64,000 nucleotides of DNA, taken from positions 704,001-768,000 of the forward strand of contig CP045477.1 in assembly GCA_009392915.1 (NCBI GenBank), written 5' to 3'. A program made the translations under genes and the position numbers. Source of the stretch: Candidatus Forterrea multitransposorum CG_2015-17_Forterrea_25_41. Its GTDB lineage: Archaea; Iainarchaeota; Iainarchaeia; Iainarchaeales; CSSED10-239. Below, piece after piece: positions 3,787 through 24,337 of this stretch; the stretch's first letter is position 1, and each line of letters begins with the position of its first letter. Under the pieces are notes generated by a model. The model did no database searches and was not told where the DNA came from. It was given only the letters and a program-made list of their open reading frames with translations.

Positions 3787-3929
3787 CTCATTTATTATTT
3801 TTTAATATAATAATTATATAAAAGATATATAAATAAATCGGTTAATTAAAAAAAATACATTTTTAAAAGTAACATACATATATATTGTTAAAAATAAACA
3901 TTTTTTAAAAAAAAGGAAAACACTTTATT

Positions 3930-5051
3930 ATGGATATAATAAATAAAAACTTAGAAAGTTATTTTAGTCTTGCAAATCAATTAAAGGAAGCGTTTAATAA
4001 TAAAAAATATGCCTTTATTAAATCAGTTTATATTCATGGTTCTTTTGCAAGAGGAGAAATTACTCCTAAAGAAAGTGATATTAACTTAATGATTTTTACT
4101 AAGAAAAAAGAAATTTTAGAAAAAGAAATTGAAACTATCTATAATATTAAACAAAAAATTGAAAGTAATTATTCAATAAAAATAGAATTTAAAATAAATA
4201 ATATTGAGAAAAATAGTCTTAAAAACATTACAACAGATATGTTCTATCCTTATCTTTATGATTTTATATTAAATAGCTTTTATATCTACGGAGAAAGAAT
4301 AGAAGACAAATTATTAAAAATTTTAAAAAATAAAACCTATTTTGAATTTTCATTTGAAACTACAAGTGTTTTTTCAAAAATAAGAATTGATTTTTTAGAA
4401 AATTATTTTAAAGAAAATAAATATAGAATGTACCATAATCTTTACAAATATTCAAGACTTTTAAAACAATTAAAAGTAAATGAAGAAGATATAGAAAAAT
4501 TAGTTTTAAAAATAACAGATTATAAAAATATAGATAAAGAAGAAATATTAAAATACATACTTAAATTTGAAGAACTTCTTGAAAAAGCAGATCTTAAAGA
4601 AATATATGAAAATAATAAAAAATTAAAATTATTTTTAGGATATGCAAAAGGAAGTTTAATCTATAATACTAAAACTAAAAAACTATTAATCCTTAGAGAA
4701 GATAGAAACATCTGTTCTTTTTGGTCAAAATCAGAAAAACAAGTAAAAAATAAAATTACTTTAAAAGATATCAAAAAAGATATTAAAGATAATTGTGGAA
4801 TTGATAAAATAACAATTGTTAAAAACAAAATAGGGGAATGTCATAATTGGTATGAAAAAGAAGACAATAGCTTTAAGAAAATACACACAGAATACTATTA
4901 TGCAACCACAGATTCTCCTGAAATGCCAATAAAAGATAATTGTTATGCATGGATTAAATTAAATGAAATTCAAAAATATATTTCTTCTCCTTGTCTTGGA
5001 TATATTGCAAAAGCATTCTATGAAGATTATATTAAAAAATTAGAAAAATAA
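3930..5051 (+). CDS. Nucleotidyltransferase-domain protein (pol-beta/MNT-like fold) with unknown C-terminal domain
   Basis: HGSFARGEITPKESDINLMIF matches the G[SG]-x9-13-[DE]h[DE]h minimal nucleotidyltransferase motif. 373 aa. Confidence 0.55.
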   Translation: MDIINKNLESYFSLANQLKEAFNNKKYAFIKSVYIHGSFARGEITPKESDINLMIFTKKKEILEKEIETIYNIKQKIESNYSIKIEFKINNIEKNSLKNITTDMFYPYLYDFILNSFYIYGERIEDKLLKILKNKTYFEFSFETTSVFSKIRIDFLENYFKENKYRMYHNLYKYSRLLKQLKVNEEDIEKLVLKITDYKNIDKEEILKYILKFEELLEKADLKEIYENNKKLKLFLGYAKGSLIYNTKTKKLLILREDRNICSFWSKSEKQVKNKITLKDIKKDIKDNCGIDKITIVKNKIGECHNWYEKEDNSFKKIHTEYYYATTDSPEMPIKDNCYAWIKLNEIQKYISSPCLGYIAKAFYEDYIKKLEK

Positions 5052-5437: not shown

Positions 5438-7750
5438 ATGAAGATAGGAAACTACACTGTTGGAGACCATGTAGTTACAACTGAAGGTAATAAGAAAAAA
5501 TTAGTTTTTGATTGTAGAAATTGTCCTTATAATACATCAATTGCAGAAGACCCTAGATGTAGGTTTCATGCAATGAAAGTTTTAGAAACTGTTGATGCTG
5601 ATGAAATAATCTTAGCTGAAGTTTATGAAAGAAACTATAATGAAGAACAAACTAAATATTTAAAAGAAATGGTAAACCTACTTTTAGAATTTGAAAATAG
5701 AGCTGTCTGGGTATCACAACATCTTGGAATAAAGGATATTGATTGTGATGAATGTTATCCTGAAAGACATAATAATATTATTAAATTTGCAAGAGAACTT
5801 TTAGCATATGATCCTATAGCCTCATATATTAGTCTTTTAAAAGAAATAGAAAATACAAAAAACAGAGGAAATGAAAGAAAAGGACAACCATGTGAACCAT
5901 GTTTTGTTGCAAATGTTAAACATTTATCAAAATTAAAAGAAATGTTTGAAAAAACAGATTTTATAAGAAAAATAAAACCTTTATTATTAAAAATAAAAGA
6001 TTTATCTGAAGTTACAGACATCTATAGAACAATTTTTGAAGTTGAAATTAAACCTGCATTTATTGGTTCAAAATTAACTTTTAAAGACATGGATACTTTA
6101 GAACTTCTAGATGAATATCAAGTATTAAACACAACAGTTCAAATTTTTAAACATCCAGAAAAAGTTGAAAACATTTATTTAATTAATCCTCCTGAATATA
6201 CCTTATCACCAGATCATTATTTTGTTTTAACTAAAACAAAAGAAACTGTTGCAAACTATAAACCAGGAAAAGTAACTTTAACAACTGGAGAGTCTACAAG
6301 AAAATATTTCCAAAGAATATATCAATCAACAATTATTGATATTGCAAAAAAATATAATATTGAACTTTCACCTGATGATGTTTATTCACTTTCAGAAATT
6401 GTTACAAGATACACTATTGGATATGGGGTTTTAGAATTATTATTATCAGATAAACAAGTTACAGATGTTTATCTAGATTCACCATTAGGTGCAAAACCAA
6501 TATATTTAGTGCATTCAAAATATGGACAATGTCAAACAAATGTACATTATCCAGAAAAAGATGCAGAAAGCTTTGTTGGAAAAATAAGAGCAATGTCTGG
6601 AAGACCATTTGATGATGCACACCCTGTCTTAGACTTTGATATGCCAGACTTAAATACCAGAATTGCAGTTATTGGAAGACCTCTTGCAACAGATGGTATA
6701 GCTTTTGCTTTTAGGTTACATAAAGATACTCCATGGACTTTACCACAACTTATAAATGTTAAATCCTTAAATCCTTTAGCTGCTGGAATGTTAAGTTTCT
6801 TTATTGATAATAACTCAACTCTTTTAGTTGCAGGATCTCGTGGTGCAGGAAAAACTTCACTTATGACAGCTTTAATGCTTGAAATTTTACAAAATGCAAG
6901 AATTATTGTGCAAGAAGACACTTTAGAGCTTCCTATAACTTATATGAAAGATATTGGTTTTAATGCTCAAAGATTAAAAACAAGATCTGCAATTGGAGGA
7001 TCAGGAGATCAATCTAATGCAGAAGTAAAACCTGAAGATGCTTTAAGAACAGCCTTAAGATTAGGTGATTCTGCTTTAATTGTTGGAGAAGTAAGATCAG
7101 TTGAAGCAAAAGTACTGTATGAAGCCATGAGAGTTGGTGCTGCAGGGAACGTTGTTATGGGAACTATTCACGCAGACTCAGCTTATGCTGTATGGGATAG
7201 AGTAGTTAATGATTTAGGAGTGCCTACCACTTCATTTAAAGCAACAGACATTATTGTTGTTGCAAAGCCAATTAGGTTTAAAGGTTCTCTTAAAAGTTAT
7301 AGAAGAGTTGTACAGATAACAGAAGTTAGAAAACATTGGAATGATGATCCTGAAGCTGAAGGTGGAATTTTAAATTTAATGGAATATGATGCTTCTAAAG
7401 ATACTTTAGTTTTAAACGAAGATGCTTTAAAAGATTCTGAAATCTTTTCAAAAATATCTAAACTTACAGGTATGACAATTGAAGAGATTTGGGATAATAT
7501 TACTTTAAGATCAAAAGAAAAGAAATTCCAAGTAGAATTTGCAAATGAAAAAGGAGTAATTGAACTTTTGGAAGCTGAACATACTGTTTTTGTGCATAAT
7601 AAACTACTTATTACAAAAGAAGACTATTTAGAAGAACATGGAAAAACAGATTATGATCAAGTCTTTGAGCTTTGGAAGAAATGGTATATAGAAAAGTTTG
7701 CTCCAAGGATGATGAAGAGAATAATTGAGAATAGAAAAAGTGAAGAATAG
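5438..7750 (+). CDS. GspE/VirB11/FlaI-family secretion ATPase with a Cys-rich N-terminal extension (orphan, no adjacent platform gene)
   Basis: Walker A VAGSRGAGKTSLMTAL and Asp box IIVQEDTLEL. N-terminus has CRNCPYNT...CRFH, CDEC and CEPC clusters. 770 aa. Confidence 0.7.
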   Translation: MKIGNYTVGDHVVTTEGNKKKLVFDCRNCPYNTSIAEDPRCRFHAMKVLETVDADEIILAEVYERNYNEEQTKYLKEMVNLLLEFENRAVWVSQHLGIKDIDCDECYPERHNNIIKFARELLAYDPIASYISLLKEIENTKNRGNERKGQPCEPCFVANVKHLSKLKEMFEKTDFIRKIKPLLLKIKDLSEVTDIYRTIFEVEIKPAFIGSKLTFKDMDTLELLDEYQVLNTTVQIFKHPEKVENIYLINPPEYTLSPDHYFVLTKTKETVANYKPGKVTLTTGESTRKYFQRIYQSTIIDIAKKYNIELSPDDVYSLSEIVTRYTIGYGVLELLLSDKQVTDVYLDSPLGAKPIYLVHSKYGQCQTNVHYPEKDAESFVGKIRAMSGRPFDDAHPVLDFDMPDLNTRIAVIGRPLATDGIAFAFRLHKDTPWTLPQLINVKSLNPLAAGMLSFFIDNNSTLLVAGSRGAGKTSLMTALMLEILQNARIIVQEDTLELPITYMKDIGFNAQRLKTRSAIGGSGDQSNAEVKPEDALRTALRLGDSALIVGEVRSVEAKVLYEAMRVGAAGNVVMGTIHADSAYAVWDRVVNDLGVPTTSFKATDIIVVAKPIRFKGSLKSYRRVVQITEVRKHWNDDPEAEGGILNLMEYDASKDTLVLNEDALKDSEIFSKISKLTGMTIEEIWDNITLRSKEKKFQVEFANEKGVIELLEAEHTVFVHNKLLITKEDYLEEHGKTDYDQVFELWKKWYIEKFAPRMMKRIIENRKSEE

Positions 7751-11346: not shown

Positions 11347-13860
11347 CTAGTCTAACATTTCGATAGCGTTGATTAATTCTTTTGCAGCGTCAGCTGTGTC
11401 TGCAGCAGAGAATCCAGCAACAACGATGTTACCGTTTTCAACAGAACCAACAACAAATTGACCAGCTTCTGTTAAGAATTCATCAGTAATTCCACTAGCT
11501 AAAGAATTAACTAAGTGTCCACCAACGATTATCTTAGCACCAGCACTTGTCATTGTTTCGTTGTCAAGGTATACAATTCTTTGTGTACTTGCATTCCAGT
11601 TAGCAGGTGTCATAGCTGTCATTTCTTCTCCACCAGTTACTGTTGAAGTGATTAATTTAGCTGAGATCATACCGTCTTCTGTTTCAACAACTGTACCAGG
11701 AGTAGTTAAAACAAGTTCTCCACCGTTAAGTGTAGTTTCTGAAGAAACTCCTCCACCTATGAAGATTTGTCCTTTTAATTGTTTCTCAGGAAGAGTAAAC
11801 ATTGGATACCCGTCTTCTATTGTTGCGTAAGCACCGTATGTTGTATAACCGAAAACTAAATCTGAATCGTTACCTTTATCTGATAAATCAAATGTGTCTG
11901 ACCCATTAGCACCGTATACTTGCTTATAAGTACCTAAAAAGTCATTATCATTTAAGTTAACCATATCTCCTGTGTATGCATCCATATACATTGTAATAGA
12001 ATCTGATCCATTAGTTACAGTTATTGCAGCAATAGATTCAAAATCATCATTTGCATAATTATCTGTAAATGTTGCACTATCTACTCTATCACCAATAAAT
12101 GAAGCATCAGATATAAATCCAGCAGCAGTATTAGTTGAATCTATTCCAGAAACATCCCATGTATAACCTGTGTCTCCAATTCCTAAATCAACTGTTTGAT
12201 TATTTTTCAAACCCATTGCAACTGTTTTAATTGTATTATAAACTGCATCTGCAGAAGCTGTTTTTGCAACACCAGGAGCTACCATCACAGTATACTCTAC
12301 ATCTCTAGCATCGTTGTTATATAAAGGAATTCTTAAATTTGTATATAATCCTGTATTAACATCTTGAACACTACCAGATTTAGAATAATAATCAGGAGTA
12401 GTTGAAACCCATGTTGGAGTTGATCCATCTGCACCAGTTAAATACTTACCATCTGAATCTTCTAATTGAACTGTGAAATTAACATCATTAGCAGCAGCAG
12501 TATAGAACTTGAAATACAATTCTTTACCATCTAATAATAATGAAGTGTATGAATCTCTAGCAGTTGTTGCTTCGTCGTAATCATACATGAAAACTTCGTG
12601 ATCTTTTCTATCAGCATCTGTAAAGTAGATGTAATTATCTTGAGCATAGAATTCTGCTGATTTTTCTTCAGTTAAACCTAAGAAATCAATTGAACCAAAT
12701 CCTAAAGGAAGCTCTACTGAATCTCCAACTCTTAATGAGTCATCATTAGTAAATCTTAATGATGTATCATCTGTAGATAAAGTGATTTTTGTTAAATAAC
12801 CAGAAGCACCAGGTGCTGAAGGAGTAAAATCAACTTTCCATAATTTATCATCTTTATTAGGGAAATCAGTTATTTTTGACCCATTCTTTAACTCTAATTT
12901 TCCTGAAGATCCAGTTATTACTTTAACAGTAGTTGCGTAAACAGTATCAACATCGATATTAGATTCTAAGTAGCTATCAAATATCTTTGTATCACCAGTT
13001 CTGAATACATCAGTTGCAACAACACTACCTGTTGAATCTTTTAAGTTCATTTCAGCTTGGTATCTGTTTGTTGTGTCACCAGTATCTAAAATATTTACAA
13101 CTTCAATTGTGTAATCGTCAGCAGTAAATGATGCACCAGGAGCATATGTTTGAGTAGCTAAGTTTTGAACTAATTTTAATGTTGTACCATCGAATGAATC
13201 AACAGTGTAGTTCTTACCCATTAAATTAAATTTAAGTCTTGGGCTTGCACCAGCATCTGTGTAATCTCCTTTAATACCTTCATCAAAATCAACAGAGTAT
13301 GATATAGCACCTTTGTCGATTGAAGCAACTAAATCTTTGACATCTTTATCTTTATTAAAGTAAACATTTGCTGTTACTGACAACTCATCAGAAATTGTTA
13401 AAGTACTTGCACCAGCGTGATCTGAATCAGCAGATGTATCTGTCTTATATAACATAGAATAATCTGTTTCATCAATTACTTTTGCAGTATTAGTCATATC
13501 ATTTAATGTGTAATTATCTGATAAGTAACCGTCACCTGATATTGTTGATGTACTTGAAGAACCTACTTCGATAGTTACGTCTTGTAAAGAAGCTCCGCCA
13601 ACTGTACCTGTAGTTGTGTATGCTTTCTTTCCGATAGCAGCAGCTATGTTACCAGCCCATACTACATCAACTGGTTGTGCCATAGAACCAACTACAACAC
13701 TAACACTTGGAACACCATTATTATACATTGTATCTTTAGTGATGTTCATAGAAAAGTTATCTGCACCAACGTTAGCAGCAACAACTGATCCAGCTAAAAG
13801 AGCTGAAACACCTAAAGCAGCTACACCAGCAACAACTTTTTTCATGTTTATATTTTTCAT
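11347..13860 (-). CDS. Large secreted Thr/Ser/Gly/Asp-rich surface protein (candidate S-layer or major cell-surface protein)
   Basis: Signal peptide MKNINMKKVVAGVAALGVSALLAGSVVAANVGA. 837 aa. Locally elevated GC and biased codon use (ACT/GGT/GCT) suggest high expression. A 690-bp non-coding leader lies upstream. Confidence 0.4.
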   Translation of the reverse strand: MKNINMKKVVAGVAALGVSALLAGSVVAANVGADNFSMNITKDTMYNNGVPSVSVVVGSMAQPVDVVWAGNIAAAIGKKAYTTTGTVGGASLQDVTIEVGSSSTSTISGDGYLSDNYTLNDMTNTAKVIDETDYSMLYKTDTSADSDHAGASTLTISDELSVTANVYFNKDKDVKDLVASIDKGAISYSVDFDEGIKGDYTDAGASPRLKFNLMGKNYTVDSFDGTTLKLVQNLATQTYAPGASFTADDYTIEVVNILDTGDTTNRYQAEMNLKDSTGSVVATDVFRTGDTKIFDSYLESNIDVDTVYATTVKVITGSSGKLELKNGSKITDFPNKDDKLWKVDFTPSAPGASGYLTKITLSTDDTSLRFTNDDSLRVGDSVELPLGFGSIDFLGLTEEKSAEFYAQDNYIYFTDADRKDHEVFMYDYDEATTARDSYTSLLLDGKELYFKFYTAAANDVNFTVQLEDSDGKYLTGADGSTPTWVSTTPDYYSKSGSVQDVNTGLYTNLRIPLYNNDARDVEYTVMVAPGVAKTASADAVYNTIKTVAMGLKNNQTVDLGIGDTGYTWDVSGIDSTNTAAGFISDASFIGDRVDSATFTDNYANDDFESIAAITVTNGSDSITMYMDAYTGDMVNLNDNDFLGTYKQVYGANGSDTFDLSDKGNDSDLVFGYTTYGAYATIEDGYPMFTLPEKQLKGQIFIGGGVSSETTLNGGELVLTTPGTVVETEDGMISAKLITSTVTGGEEMTAMTPANWNASTQRIVYLDNETMTSAGAKIIVGGHLVNSLASGITDEFLTEAGQFVVGSVENGNIVVAGFSAADTADAAKELINAIEMLD

Positions 13861-14546
13861 TTTTTATTCACCTTTTTATTTGTTTTTTATAAAACAAAGA
13901 TTGAACCTGTATATTAAAATTTTGATTAACAAAAAAACAAAGTTAAAAACAACACAACAGATTCTCTTTACAAAAAACACTTCATCGTAATCTGTAGAAT
14001 ACACTACAGATACTAATGTCCTCTGTAAGATAATTAAAGAGCAGTTTTGTTTAAAAACCTTTCTTTTTCAGAAAGAAAACAATAGGTTTTTAAAGGAATA
14101 ACTTCAGAAATTAACTCTTCATTATAAGCATATAAGAGACTTCTTCTTTCTCTTTACTTATAAGAGATTTATCTCATAAGGTAATTAATTATTTGTTTTA
14201 AAAAAAGAAGGTTTTTACTTATAACTTAAAAGAATAGTTTTCTTTTGTTTTTCCTCAAAAAAAACATTATTTATTCTCTTTAACTATATATAATATATAG
14301 TATATATAATATTAAAAAGATATTGTTTTTAAGAAAAAAAGAGTTTTTTTTAGGTAAAAGAGGAGTTTTAGAGAATACCTATTAGAGGTTTATACTCTTC
14401 TTTATAGGTATTATACCTTCTTTTATAGAGAATAAAGAAAAAATATTATAAGAGAAGAAAGAACTAATTGTTTAAAAGAAGAGTTATAATAAAGAATCTT
14501 TACTTGATAATATATAGAGAGTTTACTCATTTTACTCGTATCCTCT

Positions 14547-14756
14547 TTAAGCAGGAATCTCTATTGAATATAACTTTGCAGGAAATATGTTTTTAATAAC
14601 CTCTTTAACATCTTCATCTTCTAGAAATAAAGAAACTGCTTCTTTAAGATTTTCAAGAGCATTATTTTCATCATCTCCTTGACTAACTACATTTAATTCT
14701 GGACAAAGTGCTACAAATATTTTATCTTCTTTTGTAATTATTGCTGAAAATTTCAT
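14547..14756 (-). CDS. hicB: HicB-like antitoxin (UPF0150/RNase-H-like fold), orphan copy. The start is revised from the track's 14765 to the ATG at 14754-14756.
   Basis: MKFSAIITKEDKIFVALCPELNVVSQGDDENNALENLKEAVSLFLED has the HicB/UPF0150 pattern. The track start at 14765 is GTG and lies inside the conserved RBS block. The ATG sits 7 nt downstream of GGTGA. Confidence 0.55.
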   Translation of the reverse strand: MKFSAIITKEDKIFVALCPELNVVSQGDDENNALENLKEAVSLFLEDEDVKEVIKNIFPAKLYSIEIPA

Positions 14757-14761
14757 AAATA

Positions 14762-14797
14762 TCACCTAATATATTATAGTTATAAACAAAATTTAAA
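14762..14797 (-). promoter_or_regulatory. Promoter/RBS block, copy 1 (36 bp identical to 15495-15530)
   Basis: Minus-strand reading: TTTAAATTTTGTTTATAACTATAATATATTAGGTGA. It has a TATA-like TTTATAA/TATAATATA and a GGTGA Shine-Dalgarno 7-8 nt before the ATG. Confidence 0.5.
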
Positions 14798-15046
14798 GCT
14801 TTTTTTTTAAAGTCTAAGTTAAAAGCTCGTTTTTAAACATTGCGTGTTAAATGAGCAAAACCAAGTTTAAGCTTATGGCAAGGATTTTTCATATTATCAA
14901 ACCATTGCGCGTGAACCGAGAGAAACCGGTTCAACAAAAAGTTTTTATTTATGTCGATTTAAATCGACAAAGAAAAGTATTTTTGACGATTATTTTCGCT
15001 AAAACAACCTAATAGAAAATAACTACTAATATTTTTTTTAGATATA

Positions 15047-15277
15047 TTATACCAATTTTAAAAATTCATCTCTTGTAAGACCTAAATCTTTTTTAATAAT
15101 TTTATTAAGTAAACCTGGTCTTAATTTTTCAGAACCATGATTAGGGATTGTAATTTTATGATTATCTTCTTTGTTTATAAAAGTCATATGACTTCCAGAA
15201 CTATGACTATACTCATAGCCAATTTTTGAAATAATTTCACCTAATTCTTTTCCAGTTATCAAAGGTAGCTCAGACAA
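15047..15277 (-). CDS. hicA: HicA-family mRNA-interferase toxin (YcfA-like)
   Basis: GKELGEIISKIGYEYSHSSGSHMTFINKEDNHKITIPNHGSEKLRPGLLNKIIKKDLGL matches the HicA pattern (GSH..., PxH, K.G.L..IlkqaGl). It is 2 nt downstream of hicB. Confidence 0.7.
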   Translation of the reverse strand: MSELPLITGKELGEIISKIGYEYSHSSGSHMTFINKEDNHKITIPNHGSEKLRPGLLNKIIKKDLGLTRDEFLKLV

Positions 15278-15279
15278 AA

Positions 15280-15486
15280 CTACACCTCTAATTGTTGTAA
15301 GCCTATAAATTTAGAAACAGGAACTTCAATTTTAGTTTCAGAAGTATGACACTTGATAGCTTCTTTTGTTCTTTCTATTAATTCATCCATAGTTTTTGCT
15401 TGAGAATAGCAACCAGGTAATTCTAAGACTTCTGAAATGTACCAACCATCAGAATCTTTTTCAATAATTATATTATATTTATCCAT
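15280..15486 (-). CDS. hicB: HicB antitoxin (UPF0150)
   Basis: MDKYNIIIEKDSDGWYISEVLELPGCYSQAKTMDELIERTKEAIKCH is the canonical HicB N-terminal fold. It lies in an operon with hicA. Confidence 0.7.
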   Translation of the reverse strand: MDKYNIIIEKDSDGWYISEVLELPGCYSQAKTMDELIERTKEAIKCHTSETKIEVPVSKFIGLQQLEV

Positions 15487-15494
15487 ATTATTTT

Positions 15495-15530
15495 CACCTA
15501 ATATATTATAGTTATAAACAAAATTTAAAA
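15495..15530 (-). promoter_or_regulatory. Promoter/RBS block, copy 2 (identical to 14762-14797)
   Basis: TCACCTAATATATTATAGTTATAAACAAAATTTAAA on the plus strand. GGTGA lies 8 nt upstream of the hicB ATG (15484-15486). Confidence 0.5.
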
Positions 15531-15539
15531 CATTCTTTT

Positions 15540-17927
15540 TTAGTAAGGCAAAGCAGCATTGTTATTTGCAAGAAGACATAAACAAACTTTTAAATCTACT
15601 TGAGAAGTAAACTGAGTAACTCCATCGTTTGTAGTTAAAGTTAAAGTTCTTGTAAAACCTGCAGGGAAATTACCTAAATAAGTTAAACTTCTATTTGGTT
15701 CTATTAAAGAAGGTTGTGAAACTTTAAATAATTTAGAAGAAATATTTGTTTTAGGTAAAGGTTTAGTTGTTATTGATAAATTATTACTCTTTACAGAAGT
15801 GTAAGGAGGAGACGCTAAACCTAAGTCATATGGACTTGCAGAAAAATTACAATCGTTTGAAATTATTTGAGAACCATACTTCCAAACACAACTTACATTA
15901 TTATAATTATTATAAACAGCAACAGTAAAATCTAAATCTTCTTTGTAAGGATAACTTCTGTTTTCTTCAGGACTTAAAACTTCATGATAATGTGCTTCTG
16001 GCATTGTAACATTAATTGTTACAATATCTGTGTCTTGTCTTGAAAAATCATCTGTTACTATTAATTTAATTTCATATTCTGAAGTTTCTAAATTTAATTG
16101 ACCAGGAGTTTTATTTAAGTTACATTGGTTTGAAAAATTAGTATAAGAACTATTACCTTGTTTTTTGTGTTGCCATTGACAACTAGAATCGCCAATTTCA
16201 TTTTCTATAGAAGAAGAAAATGAAATAACATCATCAATCTCATAAGAAGAATTGTTTTCTGGAGAAGTGATTTCTGCTTCAAGGTCTAAAGGTTCTGTAA
16301 CTGTTAAATAAACATCAACAGTTGTTCCACTTTCTGATAAACCTTCAAGACGGATACCACTATCAACTAAACCATTGTAGGTTGTTGAAGTGGTGTCTCT
16401 TATTACTTGACAATTTGGATCGATTCTTGAAACATCATCAAATTTACCTTCTACAATTTCTGGGTTACAACCACCAAAATCATCCGGAAGTTCGGTTGTA
16501 TATAGATCACTATGAGTTCTAGAAGGGCTAGTATAAGCATCTAATATATTTTGTTCGAAAATAATACCAGGATGACTTATTGTATCATCATAATAATCAT
16601 CATCTTCATCGTACATGATACTGTTAAAAGCTATATCCCCAGCATAACGATCATCAATATAAGCTTCATCAACATGTAAAACATCTATTCCACCATTTGC
16701 ATTAAAAACTGGTGTAGTTACACCAAATAAATATCTATCTAAAGAAGTATCAGAAATATATCTATTAGTGATTAAAAAATATTCTCGATCACCCATGGTA
16801 TCAGGGTTGTTTAAAAGATAAGCATCATTACTAGTATCATAAGGACCTAAACTATAAATGTCTGCTTGAGAAGCAGAATTTATAACAACAGGATTAAGCC
16901 AGCCAAAAAAGAATTTTGACCAAGAATCAAAATTAACTGGTTTTTTATGATCTTGACCAACATCAATATCAAAAACCATTACAGTGTGACCTCCAAGACC
17001 AGAGCCTAACTGAATACCAGTATAACTAAGTTCATAAAGATCTGGAAGACCTAAAACATGAGCAAACTCATGAACAGCAGAATCAATACTTAATCTACAG
17101 TCTGTTGGATAATTAAAATAATTTATCCAGTTTTGACAAATAGATTGAAGATGACGAGAAGGAACTACAGCAACATTACCATAAAGCATACCTTGTATTT
17201 CTAAAGTTGTTTCTTTATAAATTCTTGCTTGAGAAATAATATTATTACCCATCTCTTGAGCAGGAAGACCAGCATGAACTAAAACAACACCATCAAGTCT
17301 ACCATCACCATCAGAATCATATTGTGTGAAATCAATTGAATTACTTCCAGTTCCAAAAAGATTTAATGTTTCAACAATAAGTTCATGAACATTATTGTTG
17401 TTATAATAATAACTATAATTGTGAGAAACAGTTCTCCAATCATAAACATCATATGAAATATCTAAAGAATCATAAGAATTGTGTTTATAAAATTCACTTA
17501 CACTTATACCTTCACCAGATAAATAATTATTTGAATTATAAACATCATCATAAACTGATGCTGTTAAACCTGCATCAGGAGAAAGATCAGGAAATTTAAC
17601 TAATAAAACAGGAATACTATAATTACCGGTTGTTGGAGAAGTTCCTATTTTATTATCTAAGGTTGTTGTTTCAAAATCTCTTGTAGAAACATTAGAAGAA
17701 TAATTTAAACCTAAACTTGCAGGAGTTTCTCCTGGAGGAAGACAAATACTTCCTGAACAATAACTTGAAAGAATTGGTGGAATTTCAAAGACAGGAGGTT
17801 TAGATTTTGTAATTGGTTTTATAACTGCAATATTTTCTGCACTTGAAGAAGCTTCTTTAGAATAAACTAAAGGAAGAAGTAAAAGTGAGAAAATTATTAT
17901 AACTACTAAAAATATTCTTTTATCCAT
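15540..17927 (-). CDS. Secreted M6 (immune inhibitor A-like) zinc metalloprotease with C-terminal beta-sandwich domains
   Basis: Signal peptide. HEFAHVLGLPDLYE matches the M6 HExxHxxGxxD motif. 795 aa. The C-terminal region is Ig/PKD-like. Confidence 0.55.
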   Translation of the reverse strand: MDKRIFLVVIIIFSLLLLPLVYSKEASSSAENIAVIKPITKSKPPVFEIPPILSSYCSGSICLPPGETPASLGLNYSSNVSTRDFETTTLDNKIGTSPTTGNYSIPVLLVKFPDLSPDAGLTASVYDDVYNSNNYLSGEGISVSEFYKHNSYDSLDISYDVYDWRTVSHNYSYYYNNNNVHELIVETLNLFGTGSNSIDFTQYDSDGDGRLDGVVLVHAGLPAQEMGNNIISQARIYKETTLEIQGMLYGNVAVVPSRHLQSICQNWINYFNYPTDCRLSIDSAVHEFAHVLGLPDLYELSYTGIQLGSGLGGHTVMVFDIDVGQDHKKPVNFDSWSKFFFGWLNPVVINSASQADIYSLGPYDTSNDAYLLNNPDTMGDREYFLITNRYISDTSLDRYLFGVTTPVFNANGGIDVLHVDEAYIDDRYAGDIAFNSIMYDEDDDYYDDTISHPGIIFEQNILDAYTSPSRTHSDLYTTELPDDFGGCNPEIVEGKFDDVSRIDPNCQVIRDTTSTTYNGLVDSGIRLEGLSESGTTVDVYLTVTEPLDLEAEITSPENNSSYEIDDVISFSSSIENEIGDSSCQWQHKKQGNSSYTNFSNQCNLNKTPGQLNLETSEYEIKLIVTDDFSRQDTDIVTINVTMPEAHYHEVLSPEENRSYPYKEDLDFTVAVYNNYNNVSCVWKYGSQIISNDCNFSASPYDLGLASPPYTSVKSNNLSITTKPLPKTNISSKLFKVSQPSLIEPNRSLTYLGNFPAGFTRTLTLTTNDGVTQFTSQVDLKVCLCLLANNNAALPY

Positions 17928-23176: not shown

Positions 23177-24337
23177 TTTTAAAAAAAAAGAAAGAAAACA
23201 AAATTGTGTTGCATAACTCTTTTTAAAAGTATTGTCTAACCTATTTTATTACTAGATAAAGGAGGTTAGACAATATGAATATTAAGAACGAAAAGATTAA
23301 TAAAAGGAACTGGTCAAAGATAAATTATGGAAAAACAAGACAAATCTTGTTTTTACTAGATAAAAACATTATTTTTAGTGAAAATGAAAGACTAGTTTCC
23401 CAAAATAAAAACAAACCAGGAAGACAATTTATATATAGTGATAGAATAATAGAACTATTAATTGATCTTAAAAATTATTTTAAATTTGATTATCGTAAAC
23501 TACAGGCATTCTGCCTGTTGTTTAATAATGTTATAAAAATAAAAACACCTGACTTTACAACTATTTGTAGAAGAATGCACAAATTAGAATTATTTCTAAA
23601 AAATATAAAAACAAAAAAAGAACCAACCTTTATAGCTATAGATGGTTCTGGACTTCAAACTACTAATCGAGGAGAATGGCTTAGATTAATACACAAAAAA
23701 GGAAAAATAAACTTAAGAAATGGATTTGTAAAATTAGTGATTGCAACAGATGTTGCATCTGGAGAAATAACTGGAGTGTATATTTCAGATGATTCTGATT
23801 TTGAAAATAAAAGCTTATCAGATTTATTATACCAAACAATAAATAATCAAAACCAAGAAGTCAAAGGACTTCTTGGAGATGGGGCATACGATTCTTATGA
23901 TAACTTTGATATGCTTGATGATATGGGAATAAAACCAATTATCAAAATCAGAAAGAATGCAATTACAACAGAACCTAATGACGATTATTTAAAAAGAAGA
24001 AGAAAACTTGGAAAAAAGAAAAAAATAAAAAGAATTGAAGTTGCAAAAAAGCAACTTAAAAATGTAGATGACTGGAAACAAAAAAATGAGTATAATAAAA
24101 GGTGGGTTGTTGAATACACGTTTAGTGTATTCAAAAGACTATTCGGACATAGTGTGTACTCTAAAAGAAAGAAATATGTCAAAAATGAAGTAATTTCTAA
24201 AGTAAATTTGTATAATAAATTATTAAATATCAATTAAGAAAAAAATAAAATGAATTAAAAAAAGAAATAAGCTAAAAATATTGTGTAAAACACAATATTT
24301 GTGCAACACAATTTTAAAAAAAAAGAAAGAAAACAAA
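23177..24337. mobile_element. IS-type insertion element with inverted termini (~TTGTGTTGCA, about 23204-23214 / 24301-24311), flanked by identical 26-bp direct repeats
   Basis: The direct repeat TTTTAAAAAAAAAGAAAGAAAACAAA lies at 23177-23202 and 24312-24337, immediately outside the inverted ends. Confidence 0.55.
23275..24237 (+). CDS. DDE transposase (IS4/IS5-like)
   Basis: Blocks IAIDGSGL, LLGDGAYDS and VVEYTFSVFKRLFG give the D, D, E/K pattern of IS4/IS5 transposases. The RBS AAAGGAGG is embedded in a 10-bp-stem hairpin TTGTCTAACC(23233-23242)/GGTTAGACAA(23264-23273). Confidence 0.6.
   Translation: MNIKNEKINKRNWSKINYGKTRQILFLLDKNIIFSENERLVSQNKNKPGRQFIYSDRIIELLIDLKNYFKFDYRKLQAFCLLFNNVIKIKTPDFTTICRRMHKLELFLKNIKTKKEPTFIAIDGSGLQTTNRGEWLRLIHKKGKINLRNGFVKLVIATDVASGEITGVYISDDSDFENKSLSDLLYQTINNQNQEVKGLLGDGAYDSYDNFDMLDDMGIKPIIKIRKNAITTEPNDDYLKRRRKLGKKKKIKRIEVAKKQLKNVDDWKQKNEYNKRWVVEYTFSVFKRLFGHSVYSKRKKYVKNEVISKVNLYNKLLNIN

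Follow-up and report, generated by a model that had tools for sequence, protein, structure and literature searches.

What history could have placed one and the same promoter-like block in front of two antitoxin genes that hardly resemble each other? The question is raised by a short islet within a 64-kb stretch of archaeal DNA (the whole of which is called the window here), where a hicB gene and its hicA partner are followed by a second hicB gene, and where each hicB gene begins a few nucleotides behind an identical 36-bp block. The first-pass annotation of this DNA regarded the second gene as an orphan and proposed that the regulatory block, and not the gene, had been duplicated or recruited. 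We consider a different history fairly probable, namely that this is a small strain-variable toxin-antitoxin (TA) islet in which two compact cassettes, each with hicB before hicA, stand on a shared leader, the second cassette having lost its toxin, and in which cassettes are gained and lost by recombination between leader copies. All features of the islet lie on the minus strand, and the loci fetched for comparison are designated by L-numbers.

The block, TTTAAATTTTGTTTATAACTATAATATATTAGGTGA, occurs exactly twice in the window, at 15494-15529, where its GGTGA lies 7 nt before the ATG of the first antitoxin gene (hicB-1), and at 14762-14797, where the same motif lies 5 nt before the ATG of the second (hicB-2). 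The identity reported originally is, consequently, exact (36 of 36 positions), and the ungapped similarity of the two copies extends to 54 nt at 89%. With up to 3 mismatches allowed, the 64 kb contain no further copy of the block and no copy of either of its halves, and shuffling the sequence 100 times gave 0 matches. As the window holds no extra copies and nothing similar to the block was found upstream of its 53 open reading frames (ORFs), a dispersed repeat or a generic promoter of this genome finds no support within these 64 kb.

The genes behind the first copy are an ordinary TA pair. The ORF at 15280-15486 (hicB-1, encoding a 68-aa HicB antitoxin without a DNA-binding domain) matches HicB_lk_antitox (PF15919) with 35.9 bits, and the ORF at 15047-15277 (hicA-1, 76 aa) matches HicA_toxin (PF07927) with 49.2 bits over profile positions 1-55 of 58, the Pfam cutoff being 27 in both cases; the check with hidden Markov models thus upholds the type II hicB-hicA pair read from the sequence at first, whose genes are 2 nt apart. 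The toxin gene begins at a TTG that follows GAGGTG and lies 2 nt past the hicB-1 stop, and this start, together with an MS(E/D)LPL N-terminus, is also present in L029 and L040. By inspection, a G-S-H motif (SGSHMTF) occupies HicA-1 residues 27-33 and is a candidate for the site of the catalytic histidine, which is His23/24 in the HicA of E. coli and S. meliloti (PMC11594946). A HicB-1 family profile (A5), built from 34 relatives, matches T. thermophilus TTHA1756 (2yzt, E=2.7e-12) and B. pseudomallei HicB (6g1c/6g1n, E=3e-6) in the PDB, where phmmer gave no match for HicA-1. NCBIfam has no family for HicB-1, HicA-1 or HicB-2. The exact HicB-1 protein is present on 23 contigs, and, by analogy with the solved HicAB complexes (PMC10865869), it would neutralise the RNase HicA-1 by direct binding.

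The second antitoxin is harder to recognise. HicB-2 (69 aa, 14547-14756) falls below the Pfam thresholds, with 13.9 bits for HicB_lk_antitox (E=0.063) and 19 bits for DUF7387 (cutoff 27.9, E=0.0018), and BLASTP finds no similarity between it and HicB-1. However, a HicB-2 family profile (A4), built from 39 relatives, aligns with the HicB-1 profile at 96.6% probability in hhalign (E=6.4e-10), and it matches TTHA1756 (2yzt, E=1.5e-6) and the HicB antitoxin 9svk (E=0.0037) in the PDB. The AlphaFold2 model (pLDDT 88.9) has only three strands and two helices, one long and one short, and its first Foldseek match is again 2yzt, followed by 3k6q and 6g1c_B, the N-domain of B. pseudomallei HicB (TMq 0.69). 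These matches have probabilities of 0.99-1.0 and weak E-values (0.03-0.3), the latter because the domain is small. NCBI and JGI annotate the identical protein, which is present on 41 contigs, as a HicB family antitoxin. HicB-1 and HicB-2 are, therefore, distant homologues, related at the profile level only; the HicB fold that had been assigned to the second ORF is borne out by profile-profile, PDB-profile and fold comparisons, though under the Pfam threshold, and so is the statement that the two proteins are not closely similar.

The start of hicB-2 had been corrected from a GTG inside the Shine-Dalgarno (SD) sequence to the ATG at 14756-14754, and the relatives agree with this correction. All 69-aa relatives start with MK(F/L)SAIITKE, the L007 gene has an in-frame TGA after the GTG of its GGTGA, and the GTG is absent from one of the alleles described below (allele C); from these three observations, the ATG is the conserved start. 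It is also the one chosen, in most cases, by public gene callers.

Is hicB-2 an orphan? Three of its orthologues (P0017, P0011 and P0013, with 75-81% aa identity) occur in three unrelated neighbourhoods in other genomes, and each of them has an intact gene for a 73-aa HicA_toxin protein (69.5 bits) 12 nt downstream. In the window, ATGAGTAAACTCTCTATATATTATCAAGTAAAGA is found 13 nt past the hicB-2 stop (~14497-14530); it aligns with the first ~33 nt of hicA in L007, L011 and L014, after which the homology ends, and represents ~11 codons of a HicA N-terminus. In other strains this stub reads MSKLPILSGKD, with a stop soon after, and the window strain has an additional 2-nt insertion. A tblastn search of the 64-kb window found no second hicA. 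As the orthologues keep their hicA and a stub of it survives here, hicB-2 can be read as the remnant of a full hicBA module, and the supposed orphan is, to judge by its relatives, the antitoxin of a second, degenerate one. The lost toxin would have been of another type than HicA-1, which is 32% identical to it. The annotation of the locus changes in three respects: the ATG start, a previously unannotated hicA pseudogene stub, and a degenerate second module in place of the orphan.

Loss of the toxin beside an intact HicB appears to be recurrent in these archaea, with hicA pseudogenised independently in different loci. In L020 (~2745-2975), a hicA with an internal stop lies beside a relative of HicB-1 (83% identical), and in L034/L032 a hicA with two stops and a frameshift lies downstream of a HicB-1-type gene (hicB-1'). 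HicB-2 itself may be a decaying remnant, a spare antitoxin retained against HicA-1 or an anti-addiction factor. A separate observation concerns the hicBA-2 orthologue of L011, in a Ca. Iainarchaeum metagenome-assembled genome (MAG; GCA_003559395.1): the pair, at 4001-4443, begins 45 nt past an intact tRNA-Met(CAT) gene at 3880-3955, and an archaeal signal recognition particle RNA is found 2.4 kb upstream.

If hicB-2 came from a complete module, the block could have come with it, and its wider distribution becomes relevant. The block proves to be the 3′ end of a leader of ~80-100 nt, which comprises a tRNA-3′-like remnant, GAGCTTTTAAC, an A-rich tract, the TATA-like TTTAAAT and the GGTGA SD, and whose core has the form TTTAAATTTTGTTT-N4-CTATAATATATTAGGTGA, with GAGCTTTTAAC in the flank. 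The hicB-2 orthologue of L007/L036, which was found by protein similarity and without any pattern, is preceded by ...GGAGCTTTTACCCTTTATCTTAAAAAACAAAGC TTTAAATTTTGTTTcttTCTATAATAcATTAtaGGTGA, so that the block is largely retained there, along with its flank. A scan with a pattern in which 24 of 31 block positions were fixed returned 11 loci from metagenomes and 3 from genomes, and 0 matches from viral contigs; an earlier scan of genome contigs with the N4 positions fixed had given 0 matches. Three of the metagenome loci (L023, L028 and L033) have neither an SD nor a hicB and were discarded as chance matches. All the other loci directly precede a hicB start, and they share the GGTGA and the flank GAGCTTTTAAC...TTTAAAAAACAAAGC, which the pattern did not require. 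The leader is found before hicB-1' (64% aa identity to HicB-1) in L029/L035/L026, before hicB-1' at the different locus of L034/L032 in a Ca. Iainarchaeum MAG, before a third HicB type in L030 (PF15919, 48 bits) and before hicB-2 in L031/L036. It precedes, consequently, at least three HicB subfamilies in related Iainarchaeota and is, as we read it, the common leader of apparently interchangeable hicBA cassettes.

These results bear directly on the history proposed at first, in which local duplication or recruitment brought a promoter/ribosome-binding-site (RBS) unit to a solitary hicB of no relation to it, so that a true orphan antitoxin came to be co-regulated with hicBA. The shortness of the repeat in the window (36-54 nt), its end at the SD and the lack of BLASTP similarity between the two HicB proteins are what such a history predicts. 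By contrast, the hicB-2 orthologue of L007/L036 already has most of the block and its flank, hicB-2 belongs to a decayed hicBA, the same leader stands ahead of further hicB types elsewhere, both at other loci and in different genomes, and the extent of the repeat depends on the lineage, reaching 78 nt and including coding DNA in L040. Duplication or recruitment of the block alone is, thus, very unlikely, and the original statement that the block and not the gene had been duplicated or recruited is not supported in that form. It had also been considered that the block might be part of a larger repeat unrelated to promoters; a larger repeat does exist, but it always ends just before a hicB start, and a promoter/RBS role is possible.

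The site also differs between strains. Flanked by one and the same pair of peptidase and S-layer genes, three arrangements (alleles A, B and C) occur in strains whose flanks are 94-99.7% identical; in describing them, P denotes a copy of the leader or block ahead of a cassette. In allele A (the window, L001, L004 and L027), the order is P, hicB1, hicA1, spacer, P, hicB2 and hicA stub, and the copies of P are identical at 36 of 36 positions. In allele B (L002, L003, L005, L006, L024 and L025), a decayed P with five changes, among them GGTGA to GGCCA, is followed by 18 nt of hicB-1, 153 nt of filler, an intact P and hicB2; the filler had no homologue in any fetched locus by blastn-short. In allele C (L029, L035, L037 and L039), a diverged P is followed by a 67-aa ORF, a short stub, a spacer homologous to window 14798-15020, a P matching at 34 of 36 positions, hicB1', hicA1', a tRNA-like remnant, a P without SD, hicB2 (99% identical) and the hicA stub. 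The genes hicB1' and hicA1' share 64% and 69% aa identity with hicB1 and hicA1, 74% and 71% nt identity, and 65% and 51% identity at third codon positions, while the blocks before them agree at 34 of 36 positions. At the first P position, all three alleles have a block-like promoter followed by AAATAATATG, and their coding sequences differ from codon 2 onward; the spacer, in turn, is downstream of the cassette in allele A and upstream of it in allele C. The position of the spacer, together with the conservation of the first P and of AAATAATATG, is the pattern expected from serial insertion of units of P, cargo and flank at a resident P.

The extra ORF of allele C lies at 3971-4174 of L029 (minus strand; it begins MQIEIIKETDLKLK), behind the diverged leader, and is also present in L035, L037 and L039. 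It was considered as a ribbon-helix-helix (RHH) antitoxin, a reading that is unsupported, as Pfam finds no family for it. The stub (~3940-3970, minus strand) is of 9 codons, MFNPGEVYY*, and resembles the start of a truncated gene; the two together may represent a third, unrecognised and degenerate two-gene module.

A further junction is that of L040, whose HicB-1 is 91% identical to that of the window. There, hicBA-1 is bracketed by a direct repeat of 78 nt (4 mismatches), which runs from the final ~48 nt of the peptidase gene through AAAAACAAAGC into the first part of the block. In the window, the intergenic DNA between the peptidase gene and hicB-1 is 53 nt long and contains the first block copy, the 5′ flank of which is the stop codon region of the peptidase gene. 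The extent of the repeat varies, then, by lineage and can include coding DNA, which favours homologous or duplicative recombination over a fixed att core. In this account, the two blocks of the window would be identical as direct repeats left when a leader-bearing cassette joined another, probably by recombination within the leader, whether of the Campbell type or by unequal crossover.

The exact identity of the two copies could also have a more recent origin, namely gene conversion between older, diverged leader copies in allele A, in which case it would say nothing about function or about how cassettes arrived. Full identity of the copies (36 of 36) is confined to allele A, the number of mismatches between them being 5 in allele B and ~7 in allele C. 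In addition, alleles A and B show a cluster of single-nucleotide differences within the final 20 nt of the upstream gene, which suggests that a recombination tract ends there. Nevertheless, the divergent copy of allele B fronts a deleted gene and may equally have decayed, and conversion leaves the sharing of the leader with other loci and genomes unexplained. We regard it as doubtful, although with some real chance of being correct.

A site-specific system is a further possibility, suggested by the remnants found near the leader. In L036 (~930-975, corresponding to L007 ~3880-3925), the 46-nt stretch CAACCTTGGTAAGGTTGAGGTCGCGAGTTCGACTCTCGCCAGAAGC directly upstream of the leader looks by eye like the 3′ two-thirds of a tRNA without a 5′ half. 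It would correspond to tRNA positions ~27-72 (CAACC-TTGGTAA-GGTTG AGGTC GCGAG-TTCGACT-CTCGC CAGAAGC), that is, an anticodon arm with GGT, a variable loop, a T arm (GCGAG-TTCGACT-CTCGC) and an acceptor strand (CAGAAGC), and increasingly decayed versions occur at the corresponding position in L029, L034, L030 and the window. The stretch could be the remnant of an att site or part of a split or unusual tRNA gene. According to the first of these possibilities, the leader would be a site-specific recombination site, att-like and derived from a tRNA 3′ end, or else attC-like, the recombinase would be encoded elsewhere, and the repeats would be scars of the attL/attR type. The position of hicBA-2 in L011, 45 nt past an intact tRNA-Met, and the leader-like copies on both sides of hicBA-2 in L036 point in the same direction. 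However, ARAGORN and Rfam do not recognise the fragments, viral contigs gave no matches, no integrase is found among the islet neighbours (a DDE transposase lies 8 kb away), and the 48 nt of ordinary coding sequence in the L040 repeat fit homologous recombination or duplication better. A dedicated att-like site is, in our view, distinctly improbable. An integron-like or other site-specific cassette system likewise finds no support, given that no integrase is present among the neighbours, the only genes examined for one, and that the extents of the junctions differ between lineages.

ARAGORN detected no tRNA in the window, L001, L002, L007, L029, L030, L034 or L036, and Rfam returned nothing at its gathering threshold over the whole window, the best hit at E<=10 within 13800-15700 being rli22 (22 bits, E=1), which is not credible. 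The remnant of the window belongs to the 249-nt spacer between the cassettes (14798-15046), which has homologues before other hicB genes in L029/L035 and L030. This spacer contains a hairpin TGTCGATTTAAATCGACA, a GC-richer conserved segment GAACCGG...CGGTTCACGCGCAATGG, the tRNA-acceptor-like remnant CCTTGCCATAAGC (~14871-14883) and the leader flank GAGCTTTTAACTTAGACTTTAAAAAAAAAGC. The hairpin is a near-perfect palindrome within a 24-nt inverted repeat (14937-14984, minus strand) flanked by T-runs, ~65 nt past the hicA-1 stop; it is conserved in L029 except for a single change and may signal the end of a transcript. A structured RNA in the spacer was considered and rejected, with fold z-scores of -1.7 and -2.1 on the two strands and a GAACCG/CGGTTC hairpin without compensatory changes in L029, and so was a 53-aa plus-strand ORF (14851-15012), whose start is lost and a stop gained in L029.

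What would the leader do for the genes behind it? The host is a DPANN archaeon (Nanobdellati, Iainarchaeota-type). The S_layer_C gene beside the islet and the low GC content support an archaeal setting, and identical or near-identical proteins and matching contigs carry the source labels "archaeon", "Candidatus ainarchaeum sp." and "Candidatus Iainarchaeum archaeon". Bacterial promoter logic is, therefore, inapplicable, and a sigma-70 promoter and terminator scan, which showed no enrichment, is uninformative here. Archaeal promoters have a TATA box of 7-8 bp, an A-rich B recognition element (BRE) directly upstream and a T(A/G) initiator (PMC7289017). By inspection, the block fits this scheme, with AAAAAAAAAGC followed by TTTAAATT and, further on, the step T30A31. 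The predicted TATA box, TTTAAATT, occupies block positions 1-8, after AAAAAAAAAGC or AAAAACAAAGC, and the leader as a whole has the order of an A-rich BRE-like tract, the TATA-like TTTAAAT(T), ~22 nt, a T/A initiator-like step and the GGTGA SD. In archaea, the distance from the TATA box to the transcription start is usually ~26 nt. A second TATA-like string, TTTATAAC, at positions 12-19, is a less likely box because it coincides with the one segment of the block that varies (ATAA, ATTT, AATT or CTTT). The original reading of the block as a TATA-like element with a GGTGA SD is, thus, plausible, and TBP/TFB-dependent transcription would begin at ~T30/A31 of both copies, giving transcripts with leaders of 11 and 13 nt that start with AGGUGA, a sequence complementary to the 3′ end of archaeal 16S rRNA. 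Given the identity of the two copies, transcription of hicB-2 should resemble that of hicBA-1 and would run in parallel with it.

The conservation of the block might, in addition, reflect selection for an operator that a trans-acting regulator recognises, for instance HicB or HicBA itself through an unrecognised DNA- or RNA-binding surface, so that all hicBA cassettes of the genome whose HicB lacks a DNA-binding domain would be controlled jointly, as a hicBA regulon; this would be compatible with cassette turnover. The leader is conserved at 34 of 36 positions where its cargo is at 71-74% nt and 51-65% third-position identity, in allele B, where hicBA-1 is deleted, the upstream copy has five changes, including the loss of GGTGA, and a perfect palindrome in the block, TAATATATTA, overlaps the predicted start site. 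Moreover, the regulation of Class 2 hicBA modules is an acknowledged open question (PMC10865869). On the other hand, the search pattern itself accounts, through ascertainment, for some of the conservation, and a 10-nt palindrome made of A and T only says little in DNA of 25% GC; in L007, moreover, the palindrome is broken (TAATACATTA). Close relatives of these hicB genes do without the block, and no candidate regulator was identified. We consider selection for an operator unlikely.

Several observations weigh against the reading of the islet as leader-sharing cassettes that are exchanged by recombination in the leader. Among the alleles found, neither one with a single P directly before hicB-2, which is the expected recombination product, nor a circular intermediate was seen. 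For L029, L030 and L034, only the flank, the SD and the downstream hicB count as independent evidence of the leader, given that the pattern forced 24 of 31 positions. In the hicB-2 orthologues of L011 and L014, all that remains of the block is TTTTTAAA and TAGGTGA, and the HicB-1 relatives of L017, L020 and L041 have a different leader from which most of the block is missing; the block is, therefore, lineage-specific and not required by either HicB family. The promoter and SD are consensus readings in a genome where, at ~25% GC, TATA-like strings are common, and the tRNA fragments were read by inspection, with ARAGORN and Rfam negative. Finally, hicB-2 is not clearly better conserved than its flanking non-coding DNA (2 differences in 210 nt between alleles, against 20 in 686 nt of the neighbouring non-coding DNA), the differences being too few for an informative test of purifying selection on the supposed orphan.

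A more ambitious version, in which the ~100-nt leader is a dedicated DPANN cassette junction, combining the promoter of hicBA modules whose HicB lacks a DNA-binding domain with a recombination site, an operator or both, seems to us quite unlikely. If true, it would mean an integron-like TA cassette array in archaea and provide a concrete answer on the regulation of Class 2 hicBA.

Both modules have, by their sequences, the traits of that class. Class 2 is defined by a hicB upstream of and closely linked to hicA, and by a HicB of 60-90 aa without a DNA-binding domain; it is experimentally unexamined, its regulation is unknown, and archaeal HicA loci are mostly of Class 1 or 2 (Gerdes 2024, mBio, PMC10865869). 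Here, hicB precedes hicA with a 2-nt gap in the intact module, and HicB-1 has 68 aa and HicA-1 76 aa; considering both modules and their relatives, the HicB proteins are of 68-69 aa with a partial RNase-H-like fold, the HicA proteins are of 73-76 aa, and the genes are 2-12 nt apart. Unlike the modules described by Gerdes, where shared leaders are not described (PMC10865869), the cassettes found here form a tandem pair, have their leader in common and vary from strain to strain. The canonical HicAB/HicBA systems of E. coli, Y. pestis (HicAB3), B. pseudomallei and S. pneumoniae (PMC11594946) have in common with them the HicA RNase fold family and the neutralising N-domain of HicB (6g1c, 6g1n), but their HicB proteins possess a C-terminal domain, helix-turn-helix (HTH) or RHH, and recognise palindromic operators within their own promoter. 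Pfam found no HTH, RHH or Phd-type family in HicB-1 or HicB-2, and the HicB-2 model contains no such domain; consequently, operator binding and autoregulation of the canonical kind, through a domain of their own, cannot be assumed. TTHA1756 (2yzt, HicB-like/UPF0150, 67 aa), which is the best sequence and fold match for HicB-2 and the best profile match for HicB-1, is a stand-alone structural-genomics protein and is uninformative on promoter sharing.

Two further comparisons concern the fate of the cassettes. Chromosomal antitoxins have been thought of as anti-addiction factors. As in other cases of toxin decay, an intact antitoxin is found here beside a degraded toxin gene, and this recurs in L020 and L034/L032; here, however, cross-protection by HicB-2 is hypothetical, and the identity between HicA-1 and the lost toxin type is low. 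Orphan antitoxins and toxin decay are dealt with in published surveys (PMC7192599, PMC10790755, PMC7354431). As for arrays, the nearest parallels are cassette arrays with repeated junctions, such as the TA cassettes of chromosomal integrons, and tRNA-targeting integrative elements; in common with these are the small cargo units, the repeated junction, the presence or absence between strains and the tRNA-3′-like remnants at the junctions seen here. However, no integrase, attC or att core was identified in the islet, and its junction includes the putative promoter and SD of the gene that follows and also, for one lineage, ordinary coding DNA.

The locus is, then, a mostly ordinary case of TA turnover. 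Its genes are ordinary, as antitoxins without a toxin and compact hicBA modules occur widely and both HicB proteins are already named by public annotation pipelines. What is new is the leader, which is non-coding, better conserved than the genes behind it and common to at least three HicB subfamilies across several Iainarchaeota genomes; it also supplies the repeats around a cassette that some near-identical strains have and others lack. It gives a handle on the control of HicB antitoxins without a DNA-binding domain, which Gerdes 2024 flagged as open (PMC10865869), and on the exchange of small defence or addiction cassettes by reduced DPANN genomes of ~0.7-0.8 Mb. Its interest would be higher if it proved to be a regulatory or recombination site specific to such hicBA cassettes.

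As for the surroundings, the islet lies between a gene for a secreted, M6-peptidase-like protein of 795 aa (15540-17927, minus strand; Peptidase_M6 in Pfam) and an S-layer gene (11347-13860, minus strand; S_layer_C), the other neighbours being a thioredoxin gene and genes of no assigned function. In L029, a 154-aa ORF (6626-7090, minus strand) is a second copy of the C-terminal portion of the 793-aa M6-peptidase-like protein encoded next to it; tandem duplication is, therefore, a tendency of the DNA upstream of the islet as well. Several contigs of 232-664 kb from independent assemblies (L001-L006) end within 0.1-2 kb of the locus, consistent with assembly breaks from strain-level variation at a repeat-bearing site; contigs with the locus reach 0.66-0.84 Mb. 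The GC content of the window is 19-36%, mostly ~25%, and a DDE_Tnp_1 transposase gene (79.5 bits) is found at 23275-24237 on the plus strand, ~8 kb from the islet. A quick alignment of the S-layer gene with that of the allele C strains gave only ~74% identity over its first 1000 nt (12861-13860), against 97% for the adjacent non-coding DNA; this divergence may be real hypervariability of a surface protein or the product of a mis-trimmed alignment. Lastly, ~690 nt without a credible ORF separate hicB-2 from the S-layer gene (13861-14546). They are 97-98.5% conserved between alleles and, beyond the hicA stub, may hold the S-layer promoter, a 5′ untranslated region or more gene remnants.

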